Source of the DNA: Nitrospinota bacterium
GTDB lineage: Bacteria > Nitrospinota > Nitrospinia > CAJXCL01
DNA length: 51,758 nucleotides
Direction: 5' to 3'
Assembly (NCBI GenBank): GCA_036011265.1
Contig: DASCNB010000011.1
Coordinates: 1-51,758 of the forward strand
Position 1 is the stretch's first letter. Every line of letters begins with the position of its first letter. A program made the translations under genes and the position numbers. Below the pieces are notes generated by a model. It was not told the origin of the DNA. It searched no databases and saw only the letters and a list, made by a program, of their open reading frames with translations. Positions 7,276 through 51,298 of this stretch are shown here, piece by piece.

Positions 7276-8379
7276 CTATGTTTTAGTGCATCTTGCGCAT
7301 CCTGGAAATAATCCCTTTTTCAAGCTTCTTCTAAATTTAATAAATTTTTCTGAATTCCATATATCAAGAAAAGGTTTTTCATTTATGTTTCCTACAGAAT
7401 ACTTAAAAGCCTCGCATGGAACAACATCTCCATTGGGATAAATAAAAGCTCCCCTGTGCACAAAGTAACATTTTCTTGATGTTTTAAATTTACTCGAATA
7501 CCAATCTTTCATTTCTTCTAGACTTAAATCGGGAGTCATGCTAAACCTTCCCTTGTATTCATTAGTAAATTTCTTGATTTTATCAAAATAGATACTTGCT
7601 TTTTCTTTAGGGTCATAAAAATAATTAACTTCGTCTATATGCTCTCCCGGAAATGTTTTATCCATAACCTGTTTATTTATTTTAACATCTTCTTCAGCAA
7701 CATACGTAGGGTGTCCAAACCTTATTAAATCAACTTTTAATTCCTCTCCAAGCTCTACTATTTTCCCTAATTCATCAAGGTTTTCTTCTAAAATTGTAGT
7801 ATGAAGCATGATTTTTGTTTTTCTATTTTTGTACGTGGAGAATTCTTTTATGGCGTTAAGGGTTTTCTCGTAAGCTCCTTTAATGCCGAGGATATCATCA
7901 TGTTTATGCCCAATTCCTTCCATCGCAAAAACGACATAACTCATTTCCACATCTACTATTTCTTTAATCAGTTCAGGCGTAAATAGGGTCCCGTTAGTAA
8001 AAATGCCACACTTCATTCCATAAGCCTTAATCCTTTTGGCAATTTCAATAAAATCTTTTCTGATTGTCGGCTCTCCGCCAAAGAAAGTTATACTCGGCTT
8101 ATAAGGAGAGACTTCCTTTAGCAGCTTATCTATTCCTTCAAAAGTTAAATCATTTTTATCTTTATTCAGCAGGGCTCCCACATTGCACATACTACATTTT
8201 GCATTGCATTTCAATGTTAGAAAAAGAGCAATATTGATCGGAGCATGATTTTTCCCATCACCACGAATATAATAATCGTAAGAAAAAAGAAAAATCTCTT
8301 TTAATGCTCTTAAGTAGGAATAAGCATTAAATTTGGTTATGGCTACATGATGCCTTTCGATCGAAGTTAATATTGACAT
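7276..8379 (-). CDS. radical SAM enzyme with C-terminal SPASM/twitch-like Cys cluster
   Basis: 367 aa. LTLKCNAKCSMCN (CxxxCxxC), FFGGEPT. C-terminal cysteines in GDVVPCEAF and FPGCARCTK. Confidence 0.8.
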   Translation of the reverse strand: MSILTSIERHHVAITKFNAYSYLRALKEIFLFSYDYYIRGDGKNHAPINIALFLTLKCNAKCSMCNVGALLNKDKNDLTFEGIDKLLKEVSPYKPSITFFGGEPTIRKDFIEIAKRIKAYGMKCGIFTNGTLFTPELIKEIVDVEMSYVVFAMEGIGHKHDDILGIKGAYEKTLNAIKEFSTYKNRKTKIMLHTTILEENLDELGKIVELGEELKVDLIRFGHPTYVAEEDVKINKQVMDKTFPGEHIDEVNYFYDPKEKASIYFDKIKKFTNEYKGRFSMTPDLSLEEMKDWYSSKFKTSRKCYFVHRGAFIYPNGDVVPCEAFKYSVGNINEKPFLDIWNSEKFIKFRRSLKKGLFPGCARCTKT

Positions 8380-8388
8380 TTTATTATT

Positions 8389-9816
8389 CTATATTTTTAT
8401 AACTGCCTTAAAACCTCTCCAAAACCTTTTTATATCGACCATGCTTTTGATGGAAAATAGCTGTCTAATCATATAGCTTGGTCTTATATAGAATTCTTTG
8501 TACGCTCTGGATATGGATTTTTTAATATAATCTTCTGTTAGCCCATCAGGAACATAATGAAGTTTGGAACTGCTGGAATTAATTAAGCAAGAGAAACTAC
8601 CAAAATTCTCATGAAGCAGCTTTCCTTCTTTTTTTATGATTTCGTACAATTCATTTCCCGGGTAAACCATTACCGCGTAAAATGCAACAACATCCGTTGA
8701 GAGTTTTTTGGCAAAACTTATGGTATCTTCTATGCTTTGTTTTGTTTCTCCGGGCATTCCTATAATTATCAGTGCCATTGTTTTTATCCCGACTTTTTTA
8801 GACCATTTTATAGCCTGCATACTCTGCTCTAATGTTATGCTCTTTTTTATTCTATCTAAAACGACTTGATTCCCCGATTCAATTCCATAACTGATCATCC
8901 AGCATCCCGCTTTTTTCATTTTATGCAGTAATTCCAGATCGACAGAATCGACTCTTGACGAGCAACTCCATGAAATATCAATTTTTTTGTTAAGAATTTC
9001 ATCACATATCCGCATAACTCTTTTTTTATCAATTGTAAAAAGGTCATCAAAAAATTTAATGTCTTTCACACCATATTCTTTTACCAGGACTTCTATTTCA
9101 TCAACAACGTTGTTAGCAGTCCTTGCTCGAAATTTATTTCCAAATACAGATCTATCGCAGAAAGTACATTTATAAGGACATCCCCTGCTGGTAATCATGT
9201 GCGCGGAAGGAAGTCGCTTATAACCTCCCGGCATTGGAGCATAAAAGTCTAAAGAAGGGAAAAGTTCTCTTGCAGGATAAGGAATTTCGTCAAGATTTTT
9301 TATAGGCAGTTTTCTTTCATTTATTATTACATTTCCATTTTCTCGCCAGACCAAAGACTTAATCTCACTAAATTTTTTCTTCCCGCTTTCAATCGTTTTG
9401 ACGAATTCCAGAAAAGAATATTCTCCTTCTCCTAAAATGCCAAAGTCAAAACAAGCCTCTTCCAAAGTTTTTTCCGGTAAAGAAGTAAAATGCGGACCAC
9501 CGATAACAAACACTGTATCTTCAGGTAAAATTGCTTTTAAATAATTAGCGACTTTGATTGCGTTAGTTATAGTGAGAACAGTTGCCGTAAAGGCCAGAAT
9601 ATCAGGATTAATTTTTTTTAACTTTTCCCCCAAGGCTTCTCTGGATATTTTAAGAGGCACGCAATCTAAAATTTCGACGTTGAATTCATTTTTTTTAAGG
9701 ACAGCGGCAATATATGCTATCCCTAAAGGCATAATGACATTAGAAACCTCTTCCAGGCTTCCAGTTTGTTCTTGCGGTGGATTAACTAGTACTATTTTAG
9801 TTTTTTTATCAGGCAT
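8389..9816 (-). CDS. B12-binding-domain radical SAM enzyme (class B) #1
   Basis: 475 aa. N-terminal Rossmann-like B12 domain (KIVLVNPP...LGIAYIAAVLKK...DILAFTA), then TSRGCPYKCTFCD. Confidence 0.8.
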   Translation of the reverse strand: MPDKKTKIVLVNPPQEQTGSLEEVSNVIMPLGIAYIAAVLKKNEFNVEILDCVPLKISREALGEKLKKINPDILAFTATVLTITNAIKVANYLKAILPEDTVFVIGGPHFTSLPEKTLEEACFDFGILGEGEYSFLEFVKTIESGKKKFSEIKSLVWRENGNVIINERKLPIKNLDEIPYPARELFPSLDFYAPMPGGYKRLPSAHMITSRGCPYKCTFCDRSVFGNKFRARTANNVVDEIEVLVKEYGVKDIKFFDDLFTIDKKRVMRICDEILNKKIDISWSCSSRVDSVDLELLHKMKKAGCWMISYGIESGNQVVLDRIKKSITLEQSMQAIKWSKKVGIKTMALIIIGMPGETKQSIEDTISFAKKLSTDVVAFYAVMVYPGNELYEIIKKEGKLLHENFGSFSCLINSSSSKLHYVPDGLTEDYIKKSISRAYKEFYIRPSYMIRQLFSIKSMVDIKRFWRGFKAVIKI

Positions 9817-10032
9817 TATTATTTTGTCTTCATTTATGTCAATTCAAGCTTACTCAAAGAACTATATAAGAATAGTAAGAGGTTAAACTAATTAACAAGG
9901 GAGGATCAAAGAACTCATAAAAAAATGATAATTAATAAATGGTAAAACTTCAAGAATTTTATTTTAGCAATAACCGATTTCAAAGACGCTGGAACATCAC
10001 ATTTGCAATTGAGAATTACTTAATAAATGATA

Positions 10033-11154
10033 TTATTGTAATGAATTCTCGACAGCTTTACAGATAAATTCAATATTTTCGTTATTTAATTCAGGGAAAA
10101 TTGGAAGAGATAAAATTTCGCCCGCACATTTTTCTGCGAGGGGAAAATCTCCTTTTTTATAATTCAAGTTTTTGTACGCTTTTTGAAAGTGAACAGGTTT
10201 TGGATAGTGCACACTTGTTACGACGCTATTTTCCAACAATTCTTTAATTTTCTTTCTTTTTTGGGTTTTTATCACATATAAATGATAAACATGCTTAGAA
10301 AATTCCTTTTCGACTGGAGTAGTTACTTCTGTATGCTTAAGCAGTTTATTATAAAGTTTTGCGTGTTTCCGCCTTTTATTATTCCACTGATCAAGGTACC
10401 TTAATTTAACACCCAACACCGCAGCTTGCAATTCATCAAGCCTGCTGTTAAACCCACATATTTTATTGTGATATTTTTTTTCTTCTCCGTAGTTTCTCAA
10501 CATTATTAATGTTTGAGCAATTTGCTCGTTATTTGTTGTAATCATTCCTCCATCACCATAAGCTCCCATGTTCTTTGTTGGATAAAAACTAAAGCACCCT
10601 GCGTCTCCTAAAGAACCAACCTTTTTGCCCTTGTATTCAGCGCCGTGTGCCTGGCAAGCGTCTTCTATAACTTTCAAATCGTATTTTCGAGCAATCTCTA
10701 TTATAGGATCCATATCCGCAGGCTGCCCATAGAGATGAACAGGAATCACTATTTTAATCTTCTTCGAGATTTTTTTTTTTAAAAATTCTTCTAATCCACA
10801 GGCAGACATTGTGAACGTTTCCGGATCAATATCTACAAAAACCGGTTTCGCATTAGCAGAGTTAATGGCAGCAATCGTTGGTACAGCAGTATTAGGAACG
10901 GTCACAATTTCATCACCTGGTTTAACGCCAGAGGCAAGCAAAGATAAATGTATTGCTTCTGTGCCTGAACCTACTCCAACGCCGTATTTTGCTCCACAAT
11001 ATTTTGCGAAGTCATCTTCAAAAACCTTCAATTCATTTCCTAAAACAAAAACACCACTATTTAAAACTCTAAAAATAGCCTGTTCTATTTCCCCTCTTAA
11101 ATTGTTGAATTGTTTGGTTAAATCAATGAAAGGAATCTTATTCATAGTTACCAA
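10033..11154 (-). CDS. DegT/DnrJ/EryC1/StrS-family PLP-dependent sugar aminotransferase (ArnB-like)
   Basis: 373 aa. [17 protein letters not shown], and the PLP-lysine context [16 protein letters not shown]. The true start may be the MNKIPF Met at 11145. Confidence 0.85.
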
Positions 11155-12149
11155 TAATGCTGTTTAAATTTTTTATAATAATTTATGGACTCTTTTAAGC
11201 CTTCCTCAAGTCTTATTTTGGGTTTCCACCCCACAGTATTTTTTATTTTACTAATATCAGAAAAAAAATTTCCCGGTTCCTGTGCGGCTCTTTCAGTCGA
11301 GAACGGAGAAAGTTCCCATGATCCAATACCTGCTAGATCAATAATTAATTTAGCTAACTCAAGGAAGCTGGAAGGTTTATCTATTCCAACGTTAAACACT
11401 TCTCCATAAGCTTCTTCGCATACAGCACACATTATAATTGCATCTACGGCATCATCCACGTAAAGAAAATCTCTAAGAATAGAACCGTCTCCAAACACTT
11501 TAATTACTTGATTATCTAAAGCCTGGCGTATAAACCAGTTTGCGACACCAAACCGACTATGTTTCATCTGAGCCCTTTTCCCATAAGTATTAGTTAACCT
11601 GAGCGTCATAGACCGAATTCCAAGATTATCATTATAAATTTTAAATAGTCTTTGTGCAGTTAAACTCGTCAATTCATAAACACCTTTAGGGTTTATAGGC
11701 GCATCTTCATTAACGGGGAGCTTTGTCGCCGTCCCATATTCACCCCGTGTTCCGGTATAGATCAATTTTGTATTTTTATTATATTTTTTACACGCTTCCA
11801 GGAGTACAACGGAACCTCTGACATTTATATCTATATCCGGGAATGGATTTGTGAGACTTAAAACATGGTCATTTTGACCTGCCAGATGAAAAATATAATC
11901 TTTATTTCTAACAATGTAATGCATACTGTTTTCATCTCTTATATCGCTATAATTAACATTAACTTTATCTTTAATAGATTCGATATTAAACGAGTTCCCC
12001 CCGAGACCGTCAATCATTGCATCCAATAATGTAACTTTAGCGCCTAATTCAACCAGCCTAATCGCAAGGTTGCTTCCTATAAAACCTAAGCCGCCAGTAA
12101 TAAGAACTTCTTTATTTTTAAAAAAATATGAGTTAATTAAATTATTCAT
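11148..12149 (-). CDS. extended-SDR NAD-dependent sugar epimerase/dehydratase-like protein with an atypical active-site motif
   Basis: 333 aa. [12 protein letters not shown] Rossmann motif. At the expected YxxxK position the sequence reads [11 protein letters not shown] (Y-x3-S), which I re-read from the DNA. Confidence 0.7.
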
Positions 12150-13111
12150 TTTTTATTCTTGTCTTGATGTACTTCACGAATAATAAATTGAGGAGTTTGA
12201 TTACTGCTTAAATAAAGATGTCCAAGATATTCCCCTATAAAGCCTAAAATAAGAAGCTGCACACCAGAAAAAATCAATATAGCTATAGCCATAGACGGCC
12301 AGCCAAGTGGTATGTTTGGAATTAAAAACAGTTTTTCAATAACCACAACAATACTTAAAATAACTCCTAACAGGCTAAAAAATAAGCCGAGCAAGGAAGC
12401 AATTCTTAATGGAATTATTGAAAAATTCAATAACATATTGAGCCACAATCTAAGCATTTTTTTTAATGTATAACCGGATTTACCTGCTTTTCTTTCCGAG
12501 TGACGGACTTCTATTTTCCCTATATTTCTGGAGCATCTCAATGCTAAACCATCAATATAGGGAAAAGGTCCTCTATATTTGATAATTTCTTGAACAACGA
12601 AACGACTGAGACATTTAAAACTAGAGAGGTAAAGACCTTTAGGTTTGTCTAACATAAAATCAGCTATCCAGTTATTAAACATGCTTACCATATTTCTATA
12701 CCAGGAATGTTTTTTTCTTTTATAGTAGGAATAGACAATATCATACCCATTTTCTGAAGCTTCGTTTACAAGTTTAATTACCTCTTCAGGGGGATTTTGA
12801 AAATCATCGTCTATGATAACCACATAATCTCCATTCGCATGATTGAGCCCTGCCATTACAGCATTGTGTTCTCCAAAGTTTTTTGAAAGATTAACATAGG
12901 TAACAATAGAGCTATATCTTGAATAAAGGTTCAGACAAACACTGTGGCTATTATCACTGCTATCATCATTGATCAGCACAATTTGAACATTTAGATCATT
13001 CAATATAGTTACCAGTTTTTCCACTAACTTGTCGATAGTATCTTCGCTGTTATAAACAGGAATAACTATTGAAATAAGCATAATAGAGACCTTTATAAAA
13101 ATATCGTTCAA
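12146..13111 (-). CDS. GT2 polyprenyl-phosphate glycosyltransferase (ArnC/GtrB-like) with two C-terminal TM helices
   Basis: 321 aa. IVIPVYNSEDTI, LINDDSSDNS, IIDDDFQNPPEE. C-terminal hydrophobic helices LLNFSIIPLRIASLLGLFFSLLGVIL and MAIAILIFSGVQLLILGFIGEYLG. The likely start is the Met at 13081. Confidence 0.75.
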   Translation of the reverse strand: MNDIFIKVSIMLISIVIPVYNSEDTIDKLVEKLVTILNDLNVQIVLINDDSSDNSHSVCLNLYSRYSSIVTYVNLSKNFGEHNAVMAGLNHANGDYVVIIDDDFQNPPEEVIKLVNEASENGYDIVYSYYKRKKHSWYRNMVSMFNNWIADFMLDKPKGLYLSSFKCLSRFVVQEIIKYRGPFPYIDGLALRCSRNIGKIEVRHSERKAGKSGYTLKKMLRLWLNMLLNFSIIPLRIASLLGLFFSLLGVILSIVVVIEKLFLIPNIPLGWPSMAIAILIFSGVQLLILGFIGEYLGHLYLSSNQTPQFIIREVHQDKNKK

Positions 13112-13311: not shown

Positions 13312-14829
13312 TCACGAAAATTGTTTGGTAAACTCATCAATTCGCGACTCCTTATTCAATAATTTCCATACAAGACTCCAACAATATTTTAAAGTATTCC
13401 TATCTATTTTAGGGTTATTAAACATAGATCCTTTTGACCAACCCATATCATCCCAGTTCCATGAATTAGAAAGTTGGCCATTAGCTATGCATTCATCGTA
13501 AAGAGCGGATCCAGGAAAGGGTTGAACCATAAAAAATTGGCACGCAATCATGCCCGCATCTATTTGCTTTTTAGCCAGCATAAAAGTGTTAGTTAGTTCA
13601 TCAGCCTCTTCGTCCGGATAGCCTATCATAAAATTACCGTCAGCAACTATTCCAATTTTATTTAATTTCCTTATTAAGTCTAAGGTGTCACATCTTTCTA
13701 TGTCCCACTTTCTCCGCGAGTATTTGTCAATAATTCTTTGCGTTCCTGATTCAAAAGGCAGGGATATTTTTCTAAACCCTGCCTCGTAAAGGGCATGTAT
13801 TAATTCCTCATCGACAACATACTTCCCATTCTTTCGCTTGAATAGATTTATAATGTTTACTCCGTTTACGTCCGCCAATTTGAAGGAATAGTTATTCAGT
13901 ATTTTCAAGATATTAAATACTCTTTTCTTGTTTGTCAAAAAGGAGTCATCATTAATATAAAGATAATTAACACCAATATCTTTTAGTTTAACAAATTCAT
14001 TTTTTATTCGTTCAACTGAATGAACTCTAAAAGAACCTATTTTGCCAGCCTCACCTCCCTGTTCATTTGATATATGGCAGTAGTGACATTTAAATGCACA
14101 TCCTCTTGATGTAAACATGCTGGCATACTTTACTAAGCTATCATTTTTCATCCATCCTTCCCTGCCTCCCCAAACTCTGCCTATTTCCCAGTATTTTTGA
14201 TTCGGTAATTTTTCCCATGACGGCATAGGAATTTTATCAAGGCTAGAGATAACTTCATTTTCTGGATTAACAATGATTTTGTTATTATTTTTAAAAGCGA
14301 TTCCCGATATCTCAGAAAGAGGAGGATTTTCTGAATGAAGAAAGTTTGCAAACATCACAATAGCTCTTTCCCCTTCAGAGAGAAAAATGAAGTCAAATCC
14401 ATTTTCAAAAAAATGCTCTTTGAGGGTTCTTGCATTGCATCCACCAGCAATAAGTATTTTCTCCGGAAAATTATTTTTAACCATATTGCTTATTTCAAAA
14501 CATCTTGAAGTCTGCTGTGTAAATATTGATGTTATTGCAATTACATCAAAATTACTTACCTCTTCTATAATTCTGCTCTGGGACATTCCTATTCTAGACA
14601 ATAAAGGAGAAATCTTTTTTTTTTGATAAAAGGTATCCTCCAACCTGTCGTCAGGCGTTCCAACACTCATATCTAGGATTTGTGAGTGGAAACCCGCATT
14701 AGTCAACGCAGCATCCAGATATGCCAGAGCAAGGCTGCCATCGGGTCTTATCATCTCCTCAGTTCTAAATTGTAATGGAGGCAACACCAACAAAAACTTA
14801 GGATTTTTAATTTTAAATTTCTTATTCAT
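13312..14829 (-). CDS. B12-binding-domain radical SAM enzyme (class B) #2
   Basis: 505 aa. N-terminal B12-like domain (FLLVLPP...LALAYLDAALTNAGF...DVIAITS), then TSRGCAFKCHYCH. Confidence 0.8.
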   Translation of the reverse strand: MNKKFKIKNPKFLLVLPPLQFRTEEMIRPDGSLALAYLDAALTNAGFHSQILDMSVGTPDDRLEDTFYQKKKISPLLSRIGMSQSRIIEEVSNFDVIAITSIFTQQTSRCFEISNMVKNNFPEKILIAGGCNARTLKEHFFENGFDFIFLSEGERAIVMFANFLHSENPPLSEISGIAFKNNNKIIVNPENEVISSLDKIPMPSWEKLPNQKYWEIGRVWGGREGWMKNDSLVKYASMFTSRGCAFKCHYCHISNEQGGEAGKIGSFRVHSVERIKNEFVKLKDIGVNYLYINDDSFLTNKKRVFNILKILNNYSFKLADVNGVNIINLFKRKNGKYVVDEELIHALYEAGFRKISLPFESGTQRIIDKYSRRKWDIERCDTLDLIRKLNKIGIVADGNFMIGYPDEEADELTNTFMLAKKQIDAGMIACQFFMVQPFPGSALYDECIANGQLSNSWNWDDMGWSKGSMFNNPKIDRNTLKYCWSLVWKLLNKESRIDEFTKQFS

Positions 14830-14857: not shown

Positions 14858-15640
14858 TTATTTTTTAAATTGTGCAGATAAGCTTATATATTTTTTTTTT
14901 GAAACCGCAAAAAAAGCTTCCGCATATTGAAATGGCTGACCTGATACAATCGCCCTATATCGATTTAGCCCTCTTGCTAAATCTATTAAATCAGTTTCAT
15001 TTGTTTGTGATTCATGGCATTTTATGGCTGAAATTTTCCTTTCCATAAATGGAGTTATATCAACAATGTAATTAGGGATAAGAGTCGACCACAATTCATA
15101 ACAACAACATAAAAAATCCCCATTATATTGATTGGCTGCAAGGGCAAGAATTTTTGCTGTGGCCCTATGGTCAGAATGGTTTTCCATAAAAAAAGGAGTA
15201 AAAACCATGTCCGGTTTTATTTCATTTAAGCGAGAAAGGACAAAATTTACAGCATTTTTGTCAGGCTTTAAACGAAAATCATGATAACCAAGAAAATGAC
15301 TTTTTTTAATCCCAAGTTTTTCACTCCCCTTCAAGGCTTCATTTCGTCTTGTTGTAGATATCTCGTCCGACTCAACAGCACCGCTTTTCTTACCATTTGT
15401 AAGAAAGATTGTTTCACCATAATACCCTCTTTCTTTAAGAACAAACAAAGTTCCTCCACAACCGAGTACATCATCGTCCGGATGGGGCGCAACGACCAAC
15501 ACCTTTTTAACGTCATCAAGATTTAGAGGGGAAGGTGTTGTGGAACTCAGGGATCTAAGAGTGCTGTAATAAGAACCAATGATGCCATCTCTTTTAATTC
15601 GATAAAGATTAATGAAAAGATTATATATTGATGTCTTCAA
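14858..15640 (-). CDS. PIG-L/LmbE-family N-deacetylase
   Basis: 260 aa. VVAPHPDDDVLGCGG zinc-site motif and downstream HSDH. Confidence 0.8.
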   Translation of the reverse strand: MKTSIYNLFINLYRIKRDGIIGSYYSTLRSLSSTTPSPLNLDDVKKVLVVAPHPDDDVLGCGGTLFVLKERGYYGETIFLTNGKKSGAVESDEISTTRRNEALKGSEKLGIKKSHFLGYHDFRLKPDKNAVNFVLSRLNEIKPDMVFTPFFMENHSDHRATAKILALAANQYNGDFLCCCYELWSTLIPNYIVDITPFMERKISAIKCHESQTNETDLIDLARGLNRYRAIVSGQPFQYAEAFFAVSKKKYISLSAQFKK

Positions 15641-18889: not shown

Positions 18890-18897
18890 TTAATCTT

Positions 18898-28712: not shown

Positions 28713-28804
28713 TTTTGAATTTTTTGTACTTCTTATTCGTTTAGATTTTTTTATTCCCAAAATATTATTTATCCAATTTTATTAAAAAAAAGATCAGACA
28801 CTTT

Positions 28805-40189: not shown

Positions 40190-40290
40190 CTTTTATTCTC
40201 TGATTTCTTTATATAGATATACAATTTTATCAGGATTGCATGACTTTTCGTAAAGGATGTCTACTCCATAAAGTTGAGGAGTTTTTAGTT

Positions 40291-40675: not shown

Positions 40676-40698
40676 CTCCTACAAAACATTTGTTTGAT

Positions 40699-41277
40699 TT
40701 ATAATGGGACGTTTTTTTTTATATGTAAAAAATCGTTTTTCAAAAACCCTACAGTATGCTTAAATAATACGTTACAACACTCACTAATTGAGAGAGTCTC
40801 AGTATCCAAAATTAGTTCTGGTTTATCAGAAAGTTCATAAGGTTCTGTAACTCCAACAAAAGTGTTGAGTTCACCAGCAAACGCCTTTGCATAGAGTCCT
40901 TTAAAATCTCTTTTTTTACAAACTTCAATCGAACATTTTAAATAAACCTCAATGAATGGGGAGAGCGCTTTTCTGGCAATCTCTCTCATCAACCTTTTGT
41001 GAGATATAGTCGAAACGATAGCCACATTTCCCCTTTGATTACAGTCATTGGCAATTCGTATTACATTCTCAAGAACGGCAAATCGTTCTTCAACTGAACT
41101 CCCATAAATCCGATCAAGTTTTTTTCGCAAAACTTCACCATCCAGAAATTCGGCATTATGATAACCTTCCTGCATTAATTTGTCATAAAGCAATTGACCC
41201 AAAGTTGTTTTTCCGGAAGCCGTGACCCCTGTAATCCAAACAGTTCCTTCAACTAGTTTATTTTTCTTAAGTTGCAT
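40699..41277 (-). CDS. cysC: adenylyl-sulfate (APS) kinase
   Basis: 192 aa. P-loop WITGVTASGKTTLGQLL, FLDGEVLRK, VSTISHKRLMRE, FIEVYLKCSIEVCKKRDFKGLYAKAFAGEL..FVGVTEPYE. Collinear with CysC blocks. 25-nt overlap with the Fe-ADH gene. Confidence 0.8.
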   Translation of the reverse strand: MQLKKNKLVEGTVWITGVTASGKTTLGQLLYDKLMQEGYHNAEFLDGEVLRKKLDRIYGSSVEERFAVLENVIRIANDCNQRGNVAIVSTISHKRLMREIARKALSPFIEVYLKCSIEVCKKRDFKGLYAKAFAGELNTFVGVTEPYELSDKPELILDTETLSISECCNVLFKHTVGFLKNDFLHIKKNVPL

Positions 41278-42353: not shown

Positions 42354-43120
42354 TTGAACATTTCTTTTGCTTTTTCAAGGTCTTCCATAAAATCTACTTC
42401 AATCCATGGAAAGTTATTTGTAGAACTGCAATATATTTTATTTCCTTCTTCTGCCATTTTGGTAAACGCGAAAGAATCATAATTAGTTAAACCATCTTCA
42501 AATAAAACTTTTTCTACATATTTAAATAGATATTCAGGCTGCTTCACATATGCAATACCTGTCCACTCACCCCCAGCCTTGTCGAGAGAAATTTTTTTAT
42601 CTGATTTAATTAGATAGTTTTCTTCAGTAACTATAACCTTCATCGCTTCTTTATCTGTACTGCCAAAATCTACAACTAACTCTATATTATTATTGTTATC
42701 TTTAAACTGTTGAAGTGTTGAGGATATTATATTTTCATGATAGATAATGTCGCTATGTAAGTACACGAAAGGGCTATTACCAGCAAAAGATTTTGCTAAC
42801 CAAAAAGAGGCGAGGTTGTTTGAAATTTTATAAAACGGGTTGGTTATATAAAATATGTCTTCCTCAAACGACTCAATGATCATATCTTTTTTATAACCAA
42901 CAACGATAGCTATGTCATTAATACCATTTTTTCTCAAAATATCAATGGATCTTTTTAATATTTCTTTACCAGAGACTTTCAGCAAAGCTTTCGGTTTTTC
43001 TGAGGTAATTGGATAAAGTCTGCTGGATATCCCGGCAGCAACGATGATAGCTTTGTCAATCAAATTTTTTTCCGAGAAAAAAGGTGATAAGTATTGGTCG
43101 GTTGAGATTAAGCTCGGCAA
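42350..43120 (-). CDS. stand-alone nucleotidyltransferase (LicC/PntC-like cytidylyltransferase candidate)
   Basis: 256 aa with a TTG start in the track. AIIVAAGISSRLYPITSEKPKALLKV signature. 4-nt overlap with the Fe-ADH gene. Confidence 0.7.
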   Translation of the reverse strand: MPSLISTDQYLSPFFSEKNLIDKAIIVAAGISSRLYPITSEKPKALLKVSGKEILKRSIDILRKNGINDIAIVVGYKKDMIIESFEEDIFYITNPFYKISNNLASFWLAKSFAGNSPFVYLHSDIIYHENIISSTLQQFKDNNNNIELVVDFGSTDKEAMKVIVTEENYLIKSDKKISLDKAGGEWTGIAYVKQPEYLFKYVEKVLFEDGLTNYDSFAFTKMAEEGNKIYCSSTNNFPWIEVDFMEDLEKAKEMFK

Positions 43121-45016: not shown

Positions 45017-46132
45017 TTAATTTCGAAGTTTGTCTATAAATATCCTCTTATTTTCTTCAGGTGTTATTGTTGGCCTTATAAGGTTTTCCCTTGATCCTTT
45101 TTTTATCTTAATAACTATTATTGTTGGGCATTTTTTAATTTTTTTCAGAGTTGTTAAAATATCTGCTACCGTTAAACAAGTTATAGATTCACTATACCCA
45201 CAACCTAACGCTATGGAAGCTATATCTATTTTATCAGAGACAGTGGGCTGTCCTCCTGTTGATTCATACGCGTTATTGTCAAAAACTATATGTATCAAGT
45301 TATTAGGAGCATAAAAACCTATTGTAGCTAAAGTTCCCATGTGCATAATAACACTTCCATCACCATCAAATACATAAATCTTCTTTTCGGGTTTTTGTTT
45401 AGCGATTTCTAATGCTATTGAAGAACAGTGTCCCATGGAACCAACCGTGTAGAAATCATTGCTATGTCCGGTACCACATTCCTCTCTGTATTCAAAAAGC
45501 TCTCTGGAAGTCTTTCCAGTAGTAGCAACAATAATCTCGTTACCGTTAAAAGAATCAATAATAGCCCTTATTGCCTGATCTTTCGTTAATGGTAAGTCGC
45601 TTTTTACCCTTATTCCTGAGTCATACTCTTCCAACAATTCATTCCTAACTATTAATGCAACAGGCATACTTTCACACACTGCCTTGTTCTTGACCTTTTC
45701 TATCTGGTACTTTATCTTATCTTCTTCGAGAATCTCATAGTAAATTTCCAGCTTTTTAAGTAAAGGGAGCATAATTCTACCCATTTTCTTATGTTGTGGC
45801 TCATCCTTTTTCCCTGGTTCTCCTCTCCAACCTGTCATAAGTATCATTGGAATACTAAAAACTTCAGGATCTGCAAGAGAGGTTAATGGATTAATGCAAT
45901 TGCCAATTCCGGAATTTTGCAAGTAAACAACACCAATTTTATTAGTAGCAAGATAATATCCTGCCGCATGAGCTACTGCTGCACCTTCATTTGAGGCTAT
46001 CCTATTAGTCAGCATATCGCTGTTTGCGGCAAGATAACTCATCCATTGCTTAAAAGTGCTATCCGGAACACCGCTAAAATAGACTAAATCATTTTTTTTA
46101 AAAATTTCAAACAGGTTTTCACATGCTATCAT
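45017..46132 (-). CDS. ppd: phosphonopyruvate decarboxylase (ThDP-dependent)
   Basis: 371 aa, a typical Ppd length. N-terminal FSGVPDSTFKQW. ThDP motif FDGDGSVIMHMGTLATIG...FDNNAYESTGGQ. Immediately downstream of PEP mutase. Confidence 0.8.
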   Translation of the reverse strand: MIACENLFEIFKKNDLVYFSGVPDSTFKQWMSYLAANSDMLTNRIASNEGAAVAHAAGYYLATNKIGVVYLQNSGIGNCINPLTSLADPEVFSIPMILMTGWRGEPGKKDEPQHKKMGRIMLPLLKKLEIYYEILEEDKIKYQIEKVKNKAVCESMPVALIVRNELLEEYDSGIRVKSDLPLTKDQAIRAIIDSFNGNEIIVATTGKTSRELFEYREECGTGHSNDFYTVGSMGHCSSIALEIAKQKPEKKIYVFDGDGSVIMHMGTLATIGFYAPNNLIHIVFDNNAYESTGGQPTVSDKIDIASIALGCGYSESITCLTVADILTTLKKIKKCPTIIVIKIKKGSRENLIRPTITPEENKRIFIDKLRN

Positions 46133-46329: not shown

Positions 46330-47964
46330 CTACATATCCATAAAAAAAGAATGGGCTAATTTGTAATTTTCAAAATTCCTAATTTCAATCCAGCCACTAT
46401 TAACCTCAATACCGTATACACTTACTCCTTTATCAATTATTTTTTGTATAATCTGTAGAAAATGTTTTCTCTGTTCTGGTAACTCTATTTTGCTTTTCTG
46501 CTGACGATAAGCATCCTTGAAAATCGCTATCCCTTTTTTTGAAAAATAGGATATTCCTATATATTCAAATTTTGCTTTTTGTGGATCCATATCTTTTCCA
46601 ATTTGAAGAATTTCATTCTCTTTTTCCTGGAACATCTTTCTTTCACCTTTTATTGGATCTTTTTTGGCAACAATATAATCAATAGATGAATCTTTTCTTG
46701 GCATTGAACTATTCATCAGCAAAACTATATCAGAAGAGGTATGGAGTAATTTTTTTATAATCGATTTTTCAAAAAGAACATCAGAAAATATTATCAAGGT
46801 ACGACTGTTTAAACTATCCCTTACCAGCATAATTGAATCGACAAGTGAAGTGTTTTCAAAATCGGCATTATTAAGATAAGTTACACCTTCCAGTTTAAAC
46901 TTCTCTGAATTGTAACCTGTAATTACTGTAATATCGTATAAACGTAGCCTACTAAGAGTTTCAACATTCCTCTGAAGAATAGATTTTCCGTTAATATCAA
47001 GCATTGCAATTGGATAATCTTTAACTATATCCTCCAAAGATTCTTCATAGCTCGGATCTCCCGCAGCAGGGATTATAACTTTTATATCGCTTAATTCTTT
47101 TTTCAAATATAATTTATCCGCTTCCTTAAGTCGTGACATCCCTTGCAATTCAAATACAGTATTCATTGATACGATCGACTTATCAATGGTTTTCAAATTT
47201 TTTCCACTTTTTATAACTTTAAGAACTTTGTTAACAGCCTTGATAGCAGCCCTTATGCAATGATTTGCATAAATTATCATTTTTATACCCATCTCGGCCA
47301 TTTCCTCGACATGTGGCAGAGGATAGGTTGTGGGTACAACAATAAGGGGCGCCCTTTTATTCCATCTTCTACAAAATTCCTTTATTTCTGATATATCTTT
47401 TGCCTTGGAATGTATTAAGATAGCATCTGCGCTCGCATCTACATACGCATTTGCCCTTTTTATAGCTTCATCTATACCCCAACCGGCAATGAGGGCCTCT
47501 ACCCTTGCAAACACCATAAAATTTTCATCTTCCTGAGCGCTCTTTGCTGCCATAATTTTTCCAACAAATTCTGCAATGGAAGCCAGTTCCTGTTTGCCCG
47601 GAACAAAGCTATTCATTTTTGGAAATAATTTATCTTCAATACATACAGCGGCTATATTTGCTGCTTCATATTTTTTTACCATATGGATTACATTATTTGT
47701 ATTTCCATACCCTGTATCACAATCAGCTACAACAGGGATTGTTATTGACTCGTTCATTTCACAAGAACGTTCCAAGTATTGACTCATTGTTAAAATACTG
47801 GAATCAGGAACTGCAAAAGAGGTCGATATCTCCAAACCAGACGCCCATACCCCATCAAACCCGTTTCTTTCAACAAGTTTTGCGCCCAAGCCATCATGAG
47901 CACCGACAATTTTTATTATTTTGTCTTTCTTAAAGAGTTCTCTCAGTTTTTCTGATTTTTTCAT
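46330..47964 (-). CDS. pepM: phosphoenolpyruvate mutase fused to a C-terminal nucleotidyltransferase domain
   Basis: 544 aa. The first about 290 aa are GAHDGLGAKLVERNGFDGVWASGLEIS...CIEDKLFPKMNSF, carrying the PepM-diagnostic EDK-x5-NS motif. The last about 250 aa (about 46330-47082) are an NTP-transferase fold: VIIPAAGDPS...LDINGKSILQ. Confidence 0.85.
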   Translation of the reverse strand: MKKSEKLRELFKKDKIIKIVGAHDGLGAKLVERNGFDGVWASGLEISTSFAVPDSSILTMSQYLERSCEMNESITIPVVADCDTGYGNTNNVIHMVKKYEAANIAAVCIEDKLFPKMNSFVPGKQELASIAEFVGKIMAAKSAQEDENFMVFARVEALIAGWGIDEAIKRANAYVDASADAILIHSKAKDISEIKEFCRRWNKRAPLIVVPTTYPLPHVEEMAEMGIKMIIYANHCIRAAIKAVNKVLKVIKSGKNLKTIDKSIVSMNTVFELQGMSRLKEADKLYLKKELSDIKVIIPAAGDPSYEESLEDIVKDYPIAMLDINGKSILQRNVETLSRLRLYDITVITGYNSEKFKLEGVTYLNNADFENTSLVDSIMLVRDSLNSRTLIIFSDVLFEKSIIKKLLHTSSDIVLLMNSSMPRKDSSIDYIVAKKDPIKGERKMFQEKENEILQIGKDMDPQKAKFEYIGISYFSKKGIAIFKDAYRQQKSKIELPEQRKHFLQIIQKIIDKGVSVYGIEVNSGWIEIRNFENYKLAHSFFMDM

Positions 47965-47985: not shown

Positions 47986-48963
47986 TTATCTCTTTCCAAT
48001 TAAATATCTGCTTTCATATTCCCCAGCCAAGGTATTTAAAATTTGAAAATATTCGCTCGATGTATTTTTTTTTATAAACTTCAATTTTCTTTCTTTATCC
48101 TTAACGTCAATTTTCCTGGGAACCCTTTGTTTTTTTAAAGAACGGGTAGTTTTCTTTGTTACTTCTGACCTTATTAAATTTGAAATTAACTCCAGATATT
48201 TATTCGGTGATTCAGCAAACTTTTCAAAAGGAATAAATAGAACCTGTTTTTTTACCGATTCGGAAAGTGATTCATATTTGTTCAGCGACTCTTTAGTAAA
48301 AATATCCACAATTTTAATTAATCGATCTATCGGAGAAATTTTTAAAAATTCCTCAACCCAGCCTGAAGCATAGTAAAGGACATCACCATCTATGCTTTTT
48401 ATAGCCAACTGCCATAGGCGAGGGTTTAATCCAGTACCAACTCCATGACCGCGATCATCCAACGAATAAACCAAATCAACCGGGTGCCTAACCATCTCAA
48501 TCACCCGGAGCCTATCTCCATAAGCATCGATGTATAAATCTATCCTTCGTAAAATATCATGAGTCTGAACTAAAAAAATGGGTCTTTCCTTTTCTATTCT
48601 TTCTAAAACAATATCGCCTTCTTTAGAAAACAACCTCTTAAAATACTTGAGAAAATTTAAACTACTGAAAACCCCTGTACGATCACTAATTTTAAAATTT
48701 GTGTTTCGAGAAATCATTGAATCATATAGTTTCATGTCTATTTCACGACATAGCAAAGCCAGAGCTGCATCCTTCGTGATTTTTTCAAAACTATATAACA
48801 GCGGGATTGATTCAAGGATTGGTTCCATACGCTCTATTTCTACTCTGTCAAAACTACTCAATATTGGCCCTAACATCGATTTCCCTGTACGAGGAAGTCC
48901 GTCTACCAAAATCAACTCTTTAACAATTCTATTGCTTCTTGCAAATTCAATATCCCGCATCAC
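47986..48963 (-). CDS. sulfotransferase-family protein (candidate PAPS-dependent)
   Basis: 325 aa. 5'-PSB-like GLPRTGKSML near the N-terminus and 3'-PB-like MVRHPVDLVYS about 130 aa later. Confidence 0.5.
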   Translation of the reverse strand: MMRDIEFARSNRIVKELILVDGLPRTGKSMLGPILSSFDRVEIERMEPILESIPLLYSFEKITKDAALALLCREIDMKLYDSMISRNTNFKISDRTGVFSSLNFLKYFKRLFSKEGDIVLERIEKERPIFLVQTHDILRRIDLYIDAYGDRLRVIEMVRHPVDLVYSLDDRGHGVGTGLNPRLWQLAIKSIDGDVLYYASGWVEEFLKISPIDRLIKIVDIFTKESLNKYESLSESVKKQVLFIPFEKFAESPNKYLELISNLIRSEVTKKTTRSLKKQRVPRKIDVKDKERKLKFIKKNTSSEYFQILNTLAGEYESRYLIGKR

Positions 48964-49294
48964 ATTTCCATTTCCGATTTACCAATTCCTTTTTTAGACT
49001 AAACTTTTTCGTAAAACTGTTAACAGCTATGTCAAGTGACGCGTTTCTGATTGAAGCTCTTTCCCCCCAAAACACAGCATAACATTTTACAGGCAGACCA
49101 TTGATTAACAAAGGGAATATTGAATTAAACAATTCAAATTACAAGTAAACTCAAGTTGCAAAAAATCTAGACAGTTCAGGACAATTGGAATCTACAGGTT
49201 TAGAATCTGAAGAATAAACGCCATGAAGGGCGCATATATTAAGGATACACAAATTCATAAATCTTAAACTATAGGGCTATTAACTTTATATTTT

Positions 49295-51298
49295 TTATAA
49301 TGACTCTTCATTGCTATATTTTACTTCTCTTCTTAAAAAATTTATTCCTCCTACCCTAAATAAGAGGTTTGAAATCCCTTGATCCGAATTTCCAAAGAGC
49401 TTGAGTCTGGAATTTATTTCGCTTGCGGATTCTTTGTATATGTAAAAAGTACAATTCAAGCTTCCTTTAAATTCATAGAGTTTTTTAGAGGATGTGTCGT
49501 CAAACCACTCGGGCATATTGTAGTCAAATGATTTTTCAATAGGCTCGTCGTAAGAGTTTTTGAGATTAATATATCTTGATATCGTGAATTCTTTCAAATT
49601 CTCCAGTTCCGTGTCATCATGATCGGGTGCTAAATTCTTTATAAAAAAATCAACCATCAAACCTGCATAATCAGTGATTAACAAAGCATAGTAGGTCTGT
49701 ACGAGATTACCACCGATTTCACCTTTTAATACTTTTGAAAAATTTTCTTCATTTGAGCAATAATTTTTTAATTCTTCGACAGTCTCAAATAGCTCTCCTT
49801 CTGCATCGTTTCTATACCTATTAAAAACATCAACAAGGTTATTGGGGGCGGATTCAGAATTTTCGACCAAGGCCTTAATAAACTCATAGAAATTCTGCCC
49901 TTCTTTAATGTATTTTAGAAGTGGTTCAAAAAGCACACTGTGCACAGTCTTCATAATCAACTGCAGAAAACGGGATTTTTTGTAATCTTGTAAACTAAAC
50001 TTATTTGTAGAAACACATATTTCTTCGTATTCAAAACAGTTTTCGCCAAAAAACCTTCCGATATCACGCGGTAAAATCCTGAACCTTGTTTGCATATTAT
50101 ATCTATCTCTAAATTCCTTTGTCTTGATCTCGGTACCATTTAACATCATTAAATTGTGCACAAATACATTGTCAACCCCTGCAGAAATCATAAACCTATA
50201 GGATTCAAAATGACTTTCAAGCGTTTCCATAGGCAAAGGCAGGATTGTTTGGCCTTCAAGTTTATCATCCGGGTTATTAAACGAGTCTTTCAGCTGAATA
50301 TAGGTATTGGCATCGATATTTTTTCTTTTAATGGTTTTTAATGTATCAGGATTTGTGGATTGCAGTGCCGCACGGATAGTTATTGTGCCTGGCTTTAATA
50401 TATTAACAGCTTTGATAACTTTATAAGCATCCTTTCCAGTAGCAACAGTAATACTTTGCGGCCAGTTTTTCTTATCTTGAAGCGTCCGAATAAACTTACA
50501 AATCTCAATATCCCTGGGAAACATTGCAAAATTGCTATCTGTAATATGAAGTAGGGATTTTTGGGCTTTGTTTGAAATATAATCTAATTCCGCCTTTACT
50601 CGTTCAATAGAAAAAAATCTTACCTTGCTATATGTTTTATTGCCCTCATAACAATAAACACAAGAAAACGGACATCCTCTTGTAGTCTGCATCATAGGAA
50701 GAAGCTTTGTATTAAAAAACTTATCCATTGTACCATCTAGATATGGAGAAGGAATCTCTTCTAGCTTTTCATGCCTATAAAAGGGTGAATCAGATGAGAC
50801 AATATCACCATTGCCAGAGAGACAAATAACTCCGTTATGCACATTTTTTTTTATTTTTTTAATTTCGCCATTTTCCTTAATATAATTGCTTACTATGTTT
50901 TCAAATGGTATCTCGCCATCACCACAAACATAATAATCTATATATGGCCTGTCTCTTAAGAATTTTCCCTGACTGCTTAAATCGTAAGAAATATTTGAAC
51001 CACCCATAACTGTCAAAAGATTACTATTCTGTTTTTTAAACTTCCGCAATATCAATGATGATAATTCCAATGTCCACGGATAATTAGTTGTACCCAATAT
51101 GTCTGGAAAGTTCCTATTAATTTTTTCCTCTAATTCATCGACAAATCTAAATATTTCTACACTTACTTTTTCAGCTAAAACTTTTTTTAAGTATGATGAT
51201 AAAAAACTGATCGAAAGAGGAAAAACATAGTTTGATAACACCCGGTTTTCGTATACAGGATCTATCAAGTAAATGGTTACTCTCTTATTGTCAGACAT
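49295..51298 (-). CDS. B12-binding-domain-like radical SAM enzyme #5 with a long C-terminal extension
   Basis: 667 aa. N-terminal Rossmann-like region (VTIYLIDPV...DILGTTNYPW...VMGGSN), TTRGCPFSCVYCYEG, and about 250 aa of unrecognised C-terminal sequence. Confidence 0.7.
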   Translation of the reverse strand: MSDNKRVTIYLIDPVYENRVLSNYVFPLSISFLSSYLKKVLAEKVSVEIFRFVDELEEKINRNFPDILGTTNYPWTLELSSLILRKFKKQNSNLLTVMGGSNISYDLSSQGKFLRDRPYIDYYVCGDGEIPFENIVSNYIKENGEIKKIKKNVHNGVICLSGNGDIVSSDSPFYRHEKLEEIPSPYLDGTMDKFFNTKLLPMMQTTRGCPFSCVYCYEGNKTYSKVRFFSIERVKAELDYISNKAQKSLLHITDSNFAMFPRDIEICKFIRTLQDKKNWPQSITVATGKDAYKVIKAVNILKPGTITIRAALQSTNPDTLKTIKRKNIDANTYIQLKDSFNNPDDKLEGQTILPLPMETLESHFESYRFMISAGVDNVFVHNLMMLNGTEIKTKEFRDRYNMQTRFRILPRDIGRFFGENCFEYEEICVSTNKFSLQDYKKSRFLQLIMKTVHSVLFEPLLKYIKEGQNFYEFIKALVENSESAPNNLVDVFNRYRNDAEGELFETVEELKNYCSNEENFSKVLKGEIGGNLVQTYYALLITDYAGLMVDFFIKNLAPDHDDTELENLKEFTISRYINLKNSYDEPIEKSFDYNMPEWFDDTSSKKLYEFKGSLNCTFYIYKESASEINSRLKLFGNSDQGISNLLFRVGGINFLRREVKYSNEESL

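Follow-up and report, generated by a model that had tools for sequence, protein, structure and literature searches.

Why are seven radical S-adenosylmethionine (SAM) enzymes encoded in a single glycan-type gene cluster, and on what do they act? The question is raised by the whole of contig DASCNB010000011.1 (51,758 nucleotides, hereafter the window), which comes from a metagenome-assembled genome (MAG) labelled Nitrospinota (GenBank assembly GCA_036011265.1) and carries about 43 genes, nearly all of them on the minus strand. An earlier note on this DNA had described five B12-binding (class B) and two SPASM-like radical SAM enzymes between positions 7276 and 51298, and had proposed that they serve an unusually heavily alkylated glycoconjugate in an anaerobe. 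The present analysis finds that the feature is real, and that it is an uncharacterised combination of surface-glycan tailoring, a Fom-like phosphonate branch and class B radical SAM chemistry. The window is probably a mosaic cell-surface glycan island of a marine Nitrospinota bacterium of low guanine-plus-cytosine (GC) content, and the seven mutually unrelated enzymes would, rather probably, tailor small-molecule building blocks and not peptides. To our knowledge, class B radical SAM enzymes are known almost wholly from antibiotics, cofactors, lipids and ribosomally synthesised and post-translationally modified peptides (RiPPs).

Seven radical SAM enzymes of seven subfamilies

The seven open reading frames (ORFs) were found at the positions given in the earlier note, all on the minus strand (Table 1). 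The five B12-type enzymes are named B1 to B5 here, and the two with a C-terminal SPASM-family domain S1 and S2. Pfam family PF04055 (Radical_SAM) scores above its gathering score in all seven, and each protein has one CxxxCxxC motif (residues 58, 213, 244, 53, 275, 247 and 209). The gathering score of the B12-binding family PF02310, 32.1 bits, is exceeded by B1 (74.7), B2 (39.2), B3 (35.4) and B4 (56.1), with E-values from 1e-8 to 7e-21. B5 falls just below it (31.1 bits); its residues 44-403, including the cobalamin domain, align to CysS (133 bits) and TokK (119 bits). Radical SAM genes take up 23% of positions 7276-51298 and make up seven of the about 43 genes of the window, and the binomial probability of at least seven is 2e-7 at a background of 1% and 2e-5 at a background of 2%.

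The earlier note had called the five B12-type enzymes paralogues. In an all-versus-all alignment they are only 21-30% identical to each other, which rules out recent paralogy; S1 and S2 share 24% identity over their core. Judged by alignment, the seven enzymes represent seven separate subfamilies and not an expanded set of paralogues. All seven fall short of the curated cut-offs of the NCBIfam models, those for HpnJ, BchE, PhpK/SD_1168, KedN5 and RiPP maturases among them, and thus none can be placed in the BchE/HpnP-type or RiPP families, in line with the earlier note.

Within these limits the enzymes lean in different directions. B1, whose closest relative among the matches listed in a scan of genome contigs is 40% identical, scores best with HpnJ and BchE, and also matches the P-methyltransferase models SD_1168 (NF038361, 190 vs a cut-off of 575 bits) and PhpK (TIGR04479, 171 vs 600). 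Its matches among solved structures are AprD4 (87 bits), QCMT and TokK; the structure 9CCB is QCMT (PMC12931638). B2 has weak matches to TokK and CysS, and B3 matches QCMT. For B4 the matches are AprD4, QCMT and TokK, with AprD4 best; TokK reaches no more than 46 bits with this protein, and the KedN5 model 66. The database copy of B4 (P0001) begins three residues after the GTG start. B5 falls with CysS, TokK and KedN5, which makes it the leading candidate for a genuine cobalamin-dependent C-methylase.

The description of S1 and S2 as SPASM enzymes holds for the Pfam match and not for the cysteines. The C-terminal cysteines of S1 (304, 322, 361 and 364) are spaced C-x17-C-x38-CxxC, and those of S2 (264, 282, 283, 327 and 330) C-x17-C(C)-x43-CxxC. 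Both proteins lack the seven-cysteine SPASM motif (CX2CX5CX3C), and a two-cluster SPASM domain is ruled out by the single cysteine set, which identifies them as twitch-type enzymes with one auxiliary cluster, as in BtrN. Residues 299-357 of S1 align to the BtrN twitch domain with the first two cluster cysteines matched, given the residues that we take to be the cluster ligands of BtrN. SkfB, cytosylglucuronate decarboxylase, Tes and BtrN are the solved structures matched by S1, and BtrN is the top match of S2 (E=2e-9); among these structures, BtrN and cytosylglucuronate decarboxylase act on sugars.

No PqqD domain or RiPP recognition element (RRE) was found by Pfam, and only 57 residues in S1 and 52 in S2 precede the cluster motif, which leaves no room for an RRE. 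For the few small intergenic ORFs, 1.6 Mb of related loci yielded no counterpart. The earlier statement that no peptide substrate is in sight is therefore upheld, and a RiPP function of the set is rejected, since neither a precursor, a recognition element, a conserved small ORF nor a family score at cut-off was found. Directly downstream of B5, a 35-aa (amino acid) ORF with three cysteines (49151-49258, minus strand) has been gene-called in locus L099; no similar sequence was found in any related locus, and it is probably not a precursor peptide.

Table 1. Features of the window. Scores are in bits, and the number after "vs" or ">" is the cut-off of the model. ACP, acyl carrier protein; AMP, adenosine monophosphate; APS, adenosine 5'-phosphosulfate; PAPS, 3'-phospho-APS; PEP, phosphoenolpyruvate; TM, transmembrane; L105, polysaccharide locus of another assembly.
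Position	Strand	Feature	Basis or remark
883..2828	-	Class I methyltransferase and GT4 glycosyltransferase	Low-coordinate island edge
4818..7200	+	SDR and 545-aa polytopic membrane protein, ArnT/GT-C-like candidate	8 TM helices
7276..8379	-	S1, radical SAM enzyme with BtrN-type twitch domain	Pfam Radical_SAM and SPASM; best NCBIfam tungsten-cofactor oxidoreductase maturase, 117 vs 380
8389..9816	-	B1, 475-aa B12-type radical SAM enzyme, HpnJ/BchE-like	Pfam B12-binding and Radical_SAM; HpnJ (TIGR03471) 230 vs 577.6; BchE (TIGR02026) 204 vs 481
10033..13111	-	ArnC-like polyprenyl-phosphate GT2, 4,6-dehydratase/epimerase, DegT aminotransferase
13312..14829	-	B2, 505-aa B12-type radical SAM enzyme	Pfam B12-binding and Radical_SAM; SD_1168 133 vs 575; PhpK 75 vs 600
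14858..15640	-	PIG-L family N-deacetylase	PF02585
15637..18119	-	TPR-FkbH protein (751 aa) and 76-aa ACP, glyceryl-ACP-type loading pair
18137..19320	-	FabG-like 3-oxoacyl-ACP reductase and MaoC-type dehydratase
19481..20032	-	Hexapeptide-repeat acyltransferase
20010..21086	-	S2, radical SAM enzyme with twitch-type C-terminal domain	Pfam Radical_SAM and SPASM; best NCBIfam tungsten-cofactor oxidoreductase maturase, 83 vs 380
21097..22059	-	GT2 glycosyltransferase
22820..24791	+	Two membrane-protein genes: 413 aa, at least 8 TM helices, polymerase/GT-C-like; 246 aa, terminal TM helices	Hydropathy
24949..25746	-	Class I methyltransferase
25734..26471	-	GT2 glycosyltransferase
26638..27594	-	NAD-dependent sugar epimerase/dehydratase
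27600..28760	-	WecB, non-hydrolysing UDP-GlcNAc 2-epimerase	TIGR00236 355 > 210
29200..29889	-	Class I methyltransferase
29906..30673	-	255-aa protein, family unnamed	L105 counterpart 32%, E=4e-43
30757..31584	-	AAC(3)-like N-acyltransferase	PF02522 E=8e-22
31529..31795	-	88-aa ACP	PF00550 E=4e-4, 21.0 vs gathering score 20.8
31874..33475	-	B3, 533-aa B12-type radical SAM enzyme in acyl/ACP cassette	Pfam B12-binding and Radical_SAM; best NCBIfam RiPP C-methyltransferase subfamily, 121 vs 282, not reached
33581..35065	-	AMP-dependent ligase	PF00501; L105 counterpart 33% identical
35049..36122	-	4-Hydroxy-2-oxovalerate aldolase-like	NF006049 304 > 229; L105 counterpart 62%
36147..36806	-	Cyclase/arylformamidase-family protein	PF04199; L105 counterpart 58% identical
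36816..38105	-	DUF4910/DUF2172/wHTH aminopeptidase-like protein	Pfam
38153..40189	-	678-aa protein, C-terminal TagF-like (CDP-glycerol glycerophosphotransferase) domain	PF04464 E=7e-10
40190..40698	.	Integrase (rve) remnants at cassette junction	ORF fragments between APS kinase and TagF-like gene
40699..41277	-	APS kinase	TIGR00455 140.8 > 138.7; PF01583 E=1e-37
41253..42353	-	PhpC/FomC-type iron alcohol dehydrogenase, phosphonoacetaldehyde reductase-like	TIGR03405 385 vs 424
42350..43120	-	Stand-alone nucleotidyltransferase, cytidylyltransferase-like	PF00483 and PF12804
43209..44738	-	B4, B12-type radical SAM enzyme in phosphonate cassette	Pfam B12-binding and Radical_SAM; SD_1168 (NF038361) 258 vs 575; PhpK (TIGR04479) 114 vs 600
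45017..46132	-	Phosphonopyruvate decarboxylase (Ppd)	TIGR03297 444.8 > 312.5
46330..47964	-	PEP mutase (PepM) fused to C-terminal nucleotidyltransferase	TIGR02320 319.2 vs 319.55, at threshold
47986..48963	-	Sulfotransferase-fold protein, divergent, PAPS-type	Motifs and family profile
49295..51298	-	B5, 667-aa B12-type radical SAM enzyme, CysS/TokK/KedN5 clade	Pfam Radical_SAM and sub-threshold B12-binding; best NCBIfam KedN5, 156 vs 700

Cassettes of the island and their relatives

Family searches confirmed that each radical SAM enzyme lies in a different module (Arn-like, deacetylase/FkbH, ACP/adenylase, phosphonate and sulfotransferase). The earlier designation as a glycan-type locus is likewise borne out, by three GT2 glycosyltransferases (one ArnC-like), a GT4, WecB, DegT, 4,6-dehydratase/epimerases, a TagF-like transferase and two polytopic GT-C-like proteins. 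The three class I methyltransferases counted before are present (at 883, 24949 and 29200), the first of them outside 7276-51298. The comparison of neighbourhoods in related genomes that the earlier note had called for was made, and the B2, B3 and B4 cassettes recur.

The phosphonate/sulfate cassette (51298 to 38153) brings PepM, Ppd, a PnAA-type reductase, nucleotidyltransferases and B4 together, which is the operon context of a Fom3-type enzyme. The PEP mutase fusion matches PF13714 (E=4e-56) and NTP_transf_3, and it contains EDKLFPKMNS at residue 110, an instance of the EDKxxxxxNS motif that is diagnostic of Ppm (PMC6697681). PsrA, after which the model TIGR03405 is named, is a PhpC homologue (PMC13576164). 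The top NCBIfam match of the stand-alone nucleotidyltransferase is inositol-1-phosphate cytidylyltransferase, at 75 bits, far below the cut-off. Both PAPS-binding motifs are present in the sulfotransferase-fold protein, PRTGKS from residue 24 and RHPVDLVYS from residue 159. Its own Pfam match has E=0.1, a phmmer search of PDB with this protein alone gave no match, and its single-sequence AlphaFold model has a pLDDT of 34.5; PF00685 is matched by 39 of 48 relatives, and a profile built from these 48 matches more than 40 solved sulfotransferases (best E=2.8e-6). The 678-aa TagF-like protein is a candidate phosphonyl transferase. Its gene is called as two ORFs (362/375 aa and 303 aa) in L094 (3327-5323) and L095 (1853-3888), which suggests a frameshift variant in some populations. 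The adjoining rve remnants are gene-called as PF00665 pieces in all identical contigs.

Relatives of B4 were found in several settings. In the locus of a 71% identical relative there are a SPASM radical SAM enzyme, a methyltransferase, CDP-OH_P_transf, Glyphos_transf, a flippase, a CTP_transf_like-PepM fusion and an iron alcohol dehydrogenase; a Glyphos_transf gene adjoins the B4 relative P0004. Around a 65% relative the order is CTP_transf, iron alcohol dehydrogenase, APS kinase, B4-like enzyme, second B12 radical SAM enzyme and sulfotransferase, on a marine-type contig with seven radical SAM genes in 19.5 kb. A 59% relative in Ca. Nitrohelix has an aminotransferase, CDP-OH_P_transf, two methyltransferases and Ppd nearby. 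A more distant relative (54%; L102-L104) occurs in 42 blocks of marine assemblies, with a TonB-dependent receptor on one side and rnpA-yidD-yidC close, and several of its neighbours are fragmented in L103 and L104. Of these four relatives, drawn from a B4 family of at least 739 members, three (71%, 65% and 59%) have phosphonate genes beside them. Meanwhile, relatives of B5 at 53% and 35% identity lie in NeuB/CMP-sugar (nonulosonic-acid) loci with further radical SAM genes, to which the former locus adds an APS kinase and a cyclase, and the latter a PIG-L deacetylase.

The acyl cassette around B3 has five genes in common, at 32-62% identity, with locus L105, in which a 51% identical B3 relative is found near a phosphopantetheinyl transferase, Capsule_synth, a flippase, DegT and GT2. 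Two further relatives of B3, about 32-33% identical (P0330 and P0353), are fused to a condensation domain of nonribosomal peptide synthetases (PF00668), which points to carrier-bound substrates. The 255-aa protein of this cassette has no match in Pfam or NCBIfam. Beyond the neighbouring methyltransferase, a 41-aa ORF (28805-28930, minus strand) resembles the N-terminus of a UDP-GlcNAc 2-epimerase; its stop codon closely precedes the intact WecB gene, and the latter begins at a start of its own (MKVFLVVGGRPNF...). The ORF is the remnant of a second epimerase and is retained in identical contigs of other samples. The two membrane proteins at 22820..24791 have no family match beyond a weak one to GT87 (E=0.27).

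In the FkbH/ACP cassette, FkbH reaches its model (TIGR01686, 315 bits, cut-off 147) and the ACP matches PF00550 with E=8e-8. The Arn-like cassette follows, with the minus-strand order PIG-L, B2, ArnC-like GT2, dehydratase, DegT, B1 and S1, and with the GT-C-like protein on the plus strand past S1. The ArnC-like GT2 has three C-terminal TM helices and scores 193 bits on the ArnC model NF007986 (cut-off 529), and DegT scores 282 bits with PseC, 215 with LegC and 211 with ArnB (ArnB cut-off 631); the 545-aa GT-C candidate has no family match in Pfam or NCBIfam. The loci L089 and L090 have B2 relatives that are 80-81% identical and stand in the same position, and also keep PIG-L, DegT, the dehydratase, the ArnC-like GT2 and the GT-C-like protein; the identity to the window is 56-81% in a related strain. 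In L089 the PIG-L beside B2 is 70% identical, and the 545-aa GT-C-like protein is found in the same place at 56%. B1 and S1 are absent from both loci, which have other radical SAM genes instead, indicating that the radical SAM content is shuffled between related strains. B1 is accessory in this strain. Between this cassette and the low edge, about 2 kb (2829-4817) are without an ORF of at least 100 aa and contain, by eye, fragments of an MNT-like nucleotidyltransferase and a PIN-domain toxin. Here toxin-antitoxin genes have probably decayed where two cassettes meet.

The density of radical SAM genes was surveyed in 80 loci of GTDB species representatives that carry a B1 relative. At least two radical SAM homologues lie within at most 21 kb in 49 of the 80 loci, and five to eight in 18. 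The dense loci come from Bacteriovoracaceae, Anaerolineae, Omnitrophota, Bacteroidales and Elusimicrobia. Eight loci (L018, L033, L036, L039, L058, L022, L043 and L054) have five to eight B12- or SPASM-type genes within 12-21 kb, beside GT2, DegT and epimerase genes. Besides radical SAM genes, six dense loci most often contain GT2, DegT, epimerase/dehydratase and methyltransferase genes, and GT2 is often the immediate neighbour of the B1 relative. The earlier note could not map such a density to any described system. This stands for the open literature searched, in which nothing was found that links radical SAM enzymes to nonulosonic acid, O-antigen or capsule loci, but the density itself is not unique and marks a recurrent class of uncharacterised loci in several phyla.

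The window also has a wide distribution. Contigs of 99.98-100% nucleotide identity to it come from seven or more independent marine assemblies (Tara Oceans, JGI, ENA, a GenBank MAG and marine metagenome whole-genome shotgun data), and cover positions 21874-43475 in L092-L098 and positions 1-11695 in L100 and L101. The anaerobic lifestyle proposed earlier is unsupported, because the contig is near-identical in these marine assemblies and the MAG is labelled Nitrospinota; class B radical SAM enzymes function in aerobes too. A protein identical to B3 is listed in 54 blocks of the collection, and the longest contig carrying it has 202 kb. For a surface-glycan island, the population with this island is unusually uniform and widely spread. 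A strain-variable high-coordinate end was considered and dropped, as the contig counts cover exact sequences only. The GC content is 34.5% in the island and 34-38% in the flanking lepA, lepB and rsmG; along the window it ranges from 31 to 39% and is uniform, equal to that of the housekeeping flanks, which rules out an inference of horizontal acquisition from composition. PGI/PMI, lepA, lepB and rsmG are found past the low edge. At its low end the window begins with part of an SIS protein, HJP17129.1, from a MAG record labelled Nitrospinota, and every named member of the lepA cluster just past the window is labelled Nitrospinota. The taxonomy labels conflict in one case, since the B3 protein (HJP17162.1 / MBQ09495.1) is assigned to 'Gammaproteobacteria bacterium' in an older MAG record. 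Nitrospinota go unmentioned in a large marine phosphonate survey (PMC9381506). Rfam and tRNA scans of the window found no cobalamin riboswitch, no other RNA family and no tRNA.

Proposed chemistry and its alternatives

According to the gene content, the phosphonate branch would lead from PEP through phosphonopyruvate and phosphonoacetaldehyde to 2-hydroxyethylphosphonate (HEP) and on to its cytidine monophosphate (CMP) conjugate, CMP-HEP. Formation of CMP-HEP has been shown for Fom1, and Ppm-nucleotidyltransferase fusions are known (PMC6697681). B4 would then modify the activated phosphonate, the likeliest step being a Fom3-like C-methylation to CMP-2-hydroxypropylphosphonate. The TagF-like enzyme would move the phosphonyl group onto a sugar, and the APS kinase and the sulfotransferase would separately add sulfate. 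Marine polysaccharide is known to carry esters of HEP and of methylphosphonate (PMC5649143). That the cassette of nucleotidyltransferase, PhpC-type reductase, APS kinase, B4 and sulfotransferase, together with PepM and Ppd, is a widespread marine pathway placing 2-hydroxypropylphosphonate on polysaccharide is a long shot. In a bolder and speculative form of this proposal, the APS-kinase homologue would make a 3'-phosphorylated, PAPS-like CMP-phosphonate, which the sulfotransferase-fold protein would use as phosphonyl donor. The marine phosphonate pool may include a third member, one that yields propylene on cleavage by C-P lyase.

In the acyl cassette, the aldolase, the 255-aa protein and the cyclase would build a short acid, which the AMP-ligase would load on the ACP; B3 may then alter the carrier-bound acyl group, with which the AAC(3)-like enzyme would N-acylate an aminosugar. 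The FkbH/ACP cassette, with FabG, MaoC, the hexapeptide acyltransferase and S2, would supply a glyceryl-type acyl decoration. S2 might carry out a radical oxidation or epimerisation of a sugar there, and S1 and S2 alike may oxidise sugars in the manner of BtrN or act on them by a related radical step. In the Arn-like cassette, an aminosugar would be made, carried on polyprenyl phosphate, deacetylated, radically modified and transferred outside the membrane. B2 and B1 may act on the nucleotide- or polyprenyl-linked aminosugar, following the logic of hopanoid tailoring by HpnI, HpnK and HpnJ, which the Arn-like genes parallel.

Several observations weigh against this reading. The window yielded no flippase, no family-matched polymerase, no exporter and no initiating transferase. 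Remnants lie at cassette junctions (2829-4817, 28805-28930 and 40190-40698), which shows that the cassettes have been joined by recombination; they may not serve one product. The single heavily alkylated glycoconjugate of the earlier note is therefore not sustained, as such a mosaic may serve more than one acceptor. The cassettes might instead serve two or more separate products on one island, for example an Arn-type modification of lipid A or core, an O-antigen or capsule, and a phosphonoglycan or glycoprotein. We regard this as a serious alternative, although with less than an even chance. Besides the remnants and the strand switches between cassettes, it is favoured by the occurrence of each cassette alone in other genomes, by the exchange of B1 and S1 for other radical SAM genes in L089/L090, and by the presence of two distinct GT-C-like membrane proteins. 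However, nearly all genes are co-oriented with short gaps, the composition is as uniform as in the housekeeping flanks, and the whole 21874-43475 stretch is kept almost without change in the independent assemblies.

Since no radical SAM enzyme reaches a curated cut-off, every reaction proposed for them rests on context, and the step from class B to methylation in the earlier note was overstated. It is quite conceivable, though somewhat less likely than separate products, that most of the five B12-domain enzymes, chiefly B1-B4, are non-methylating, with or without cobalamin, and catalyse AprD4-like dehydration, HpnJ/OxsB-like ring contraction, cyclisation, epimerisation or C-C bonding. The best curated model of B1 is HpnJ, with BchE next; AprD4 tops the solved-structure matches of B1 and B4; and the triad of GT2, deacetylase and B12 radical SAM enzyme parallels HpnI/HpnK/HpnJ. 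As for the Fom3-like role in the main reading, models of the SD_1168/PhpK/HpnJ type come closer to B4 than does the TokK/CysS/KedN5 clade, to which Fom3 presumably belongs. PepM and Ppd are not found within 9 kb of the 65% relative of B4, and the 54% relative sits with DegT, an epimerase, a B12 radical SAM enzyme and GT4, with no phosphonate gene within 8 kb. The class B architecture also covers cyclases, ring-contracting enzymes and dehydratases, methylases and non-methylating members are inseparable by sequence, and AprD4 and ArsL do not bind cobalamin (PMC12931638). Against a general absence of methylation, C-methyltransferases occur in every group of the sequence similarity network with a characterised member (PMC12931638), B5 is clearly in the CysS/TokK methylase clade, the B12-binding domain is significant in B1-B4, and the phosphonate cassette supplies precisely those genes that must precede a Fom3-type methylation.

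A secondary-metabolite cluster for a diffusible aminoglycoside-like or phosphonate product, instead of a surface glycan, is very unlikely. The window does recall antibiotic pathways in BtrN, AprD4, CysS/TokK, AAC(3), PIG-L (likened to paromamine deacetylases), DegT, the ACP with its ligase and the Fom-like genes; however, it contains no 2-deoxy-scyllo-inosose synthase, epoxidase, resistance kinase or exporter, it does contain the ArnC-like GT2, WecB, three more glycosyltransferases, the TagF-like transferase and the two GT-C-like proteins, and relatives of its cassettes adjoin flippases, Capsule_synth, NeuB and CMP-sugar synthetases. That S1, S2 and B3, or some of them, are RiPP or protein maturases with a substrate encoded elsewhere is scarcely credible: the top NCBIfam model of B3 is a RiPP C-methyltransferase subfamily, and the top matches of S1 and S2 include the tungsten cofactor oxidoreductase maturase, SkfB and YydG, but all scores are far under the cut-offs (Table 1), neither an RRE/PqqD domain, nor space for one, nor a conserved small ORF is present, the B3 cassette with its ACP and ligase is conserved in polysaccharide loci, and the twitch layout is that of BtrN, which acts on an aminocyclitol.

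Tailoring of surface-glycan building blocks is the interpretation that we prefer. A 2026 review, in which neither "glycan" nor "polysaccharide" occurs, counts 83,589 class B sequences in more than 100 groups, mostly unexplored (PMC12931638). The island and the recurrent radical SAM-dense glycan loci suggest that much of this diversity tailors surface sugars, acyl groups and phosphonates. The phosphonate cassette, whose host is found nearly identical in many ocean assemblies, is a concrete candidate route to the alkylphosphonate esters on marine polysaccharide that feed aerobic methane and ethylene production (PMC5649143).

Comparison with known systems

Among the closest known systems is the early fosfomycin pathway of Streptomyces (Fom1, which joins PepM to a cytidylyltransferase, Fom2, FomC and Fom3), with which the window shares a PepM-nucleotidyltransferase fusion, Ppd, a PhpC/FomC-type iron alcohol dehydrogenase and a B12 radical SAM enzyme in one operon; the CTP_transf_like-PepM fusion beside the 71% relative of B4 has the architecture of Fom1. 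In contrast, the window is without FomD, the HppE epoxidase and a resistance kinase, its fused nucleotidyltransferase forms the C-terminal part and belongs to the PF12804 type, and its cassette lies amid glycan genes and includes an APS kinase, a sulfotransferase and a TagF-like transferase. Among the curated models and solved structures compared, those of the SD_1168 type come nearest to B4, and not the TokK/CysS/KedN5 clade. The P-methyltransferases PhpK and SD_1168 are also B12-domain radical SAM enzymes tied to phosphonate chemistry, and SD_1168 is the best curated model for B4 and B2. However, B4 and B2 score far under the cut-offs of 575 and 600, and the window is without the genes that generate the P-H phosphinate substrate required by these enzymes in phosphinothricin biosynthesis.

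Among surface-tailoring systems, O-methyl phosphoramidate synthesis in Campylobacter jejuni (Cj1415-Cj1418) combines a nucleotidyltransferase with an APS-kinase homologue, and the kinase makes a 3'-phosphorylated, PAPS-like cytidine donor. The window differs in having no glutamine kinase or amidohydrolase, and its kinase passes the cut-off of true APS kinases. The Pnt systems (PntC, phosphonoglycans, Bacteroides polysaccharide B) share the Ppm-nucleotidyltransferase fusion and a presumed CMP-phosphonate donor (PMC6697681), but the window has an HEP branch with a PhpC-type reductase in place of the AEP transaminase, and adds a B12 radical SAM enzyme, an APS kinase and a sulfotransferase. In Campylobacter, a ppm-ppd core flanked by radical SAM and adenylylsulfate kinase genes was left unclassified by Li and Horsman (PMC8942020).

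For the other modules, hopanoid tailoring by HpnI, HpnK and HpnJ resembles the Arn-like cassette in combining a GT2, an N-deacetylase and a B12 radical SAM enzyme on a lipid-linked aminosugar, and HpnJ is the best model for B1. The deacetylase of the window is of the PIG-L type, however, and hopanoid genes are absent; because the GT2 is ArnC-like, the carrier would be polyprenyl phosphate and not a hopanoid. The aminoglycoside enzymes BtrN, AprD4 and GenK/GenD1 also act on aminosugars or aminocyclitols, and S1 and S2 share the twitch cysteine layout of BtrN, but the similarity is weak (36-87 bits) and the context is a surface glycan and not an antibiotic cluster. Finally, B5 resembles CysS, TokK and KedN5 along some 360 residues, the cobalamin domain among them, and it has the long C-terminal domain too, while it differs in its low score (156 vs 700) and in having relatives in nonulosonic-acid/glycan loci.

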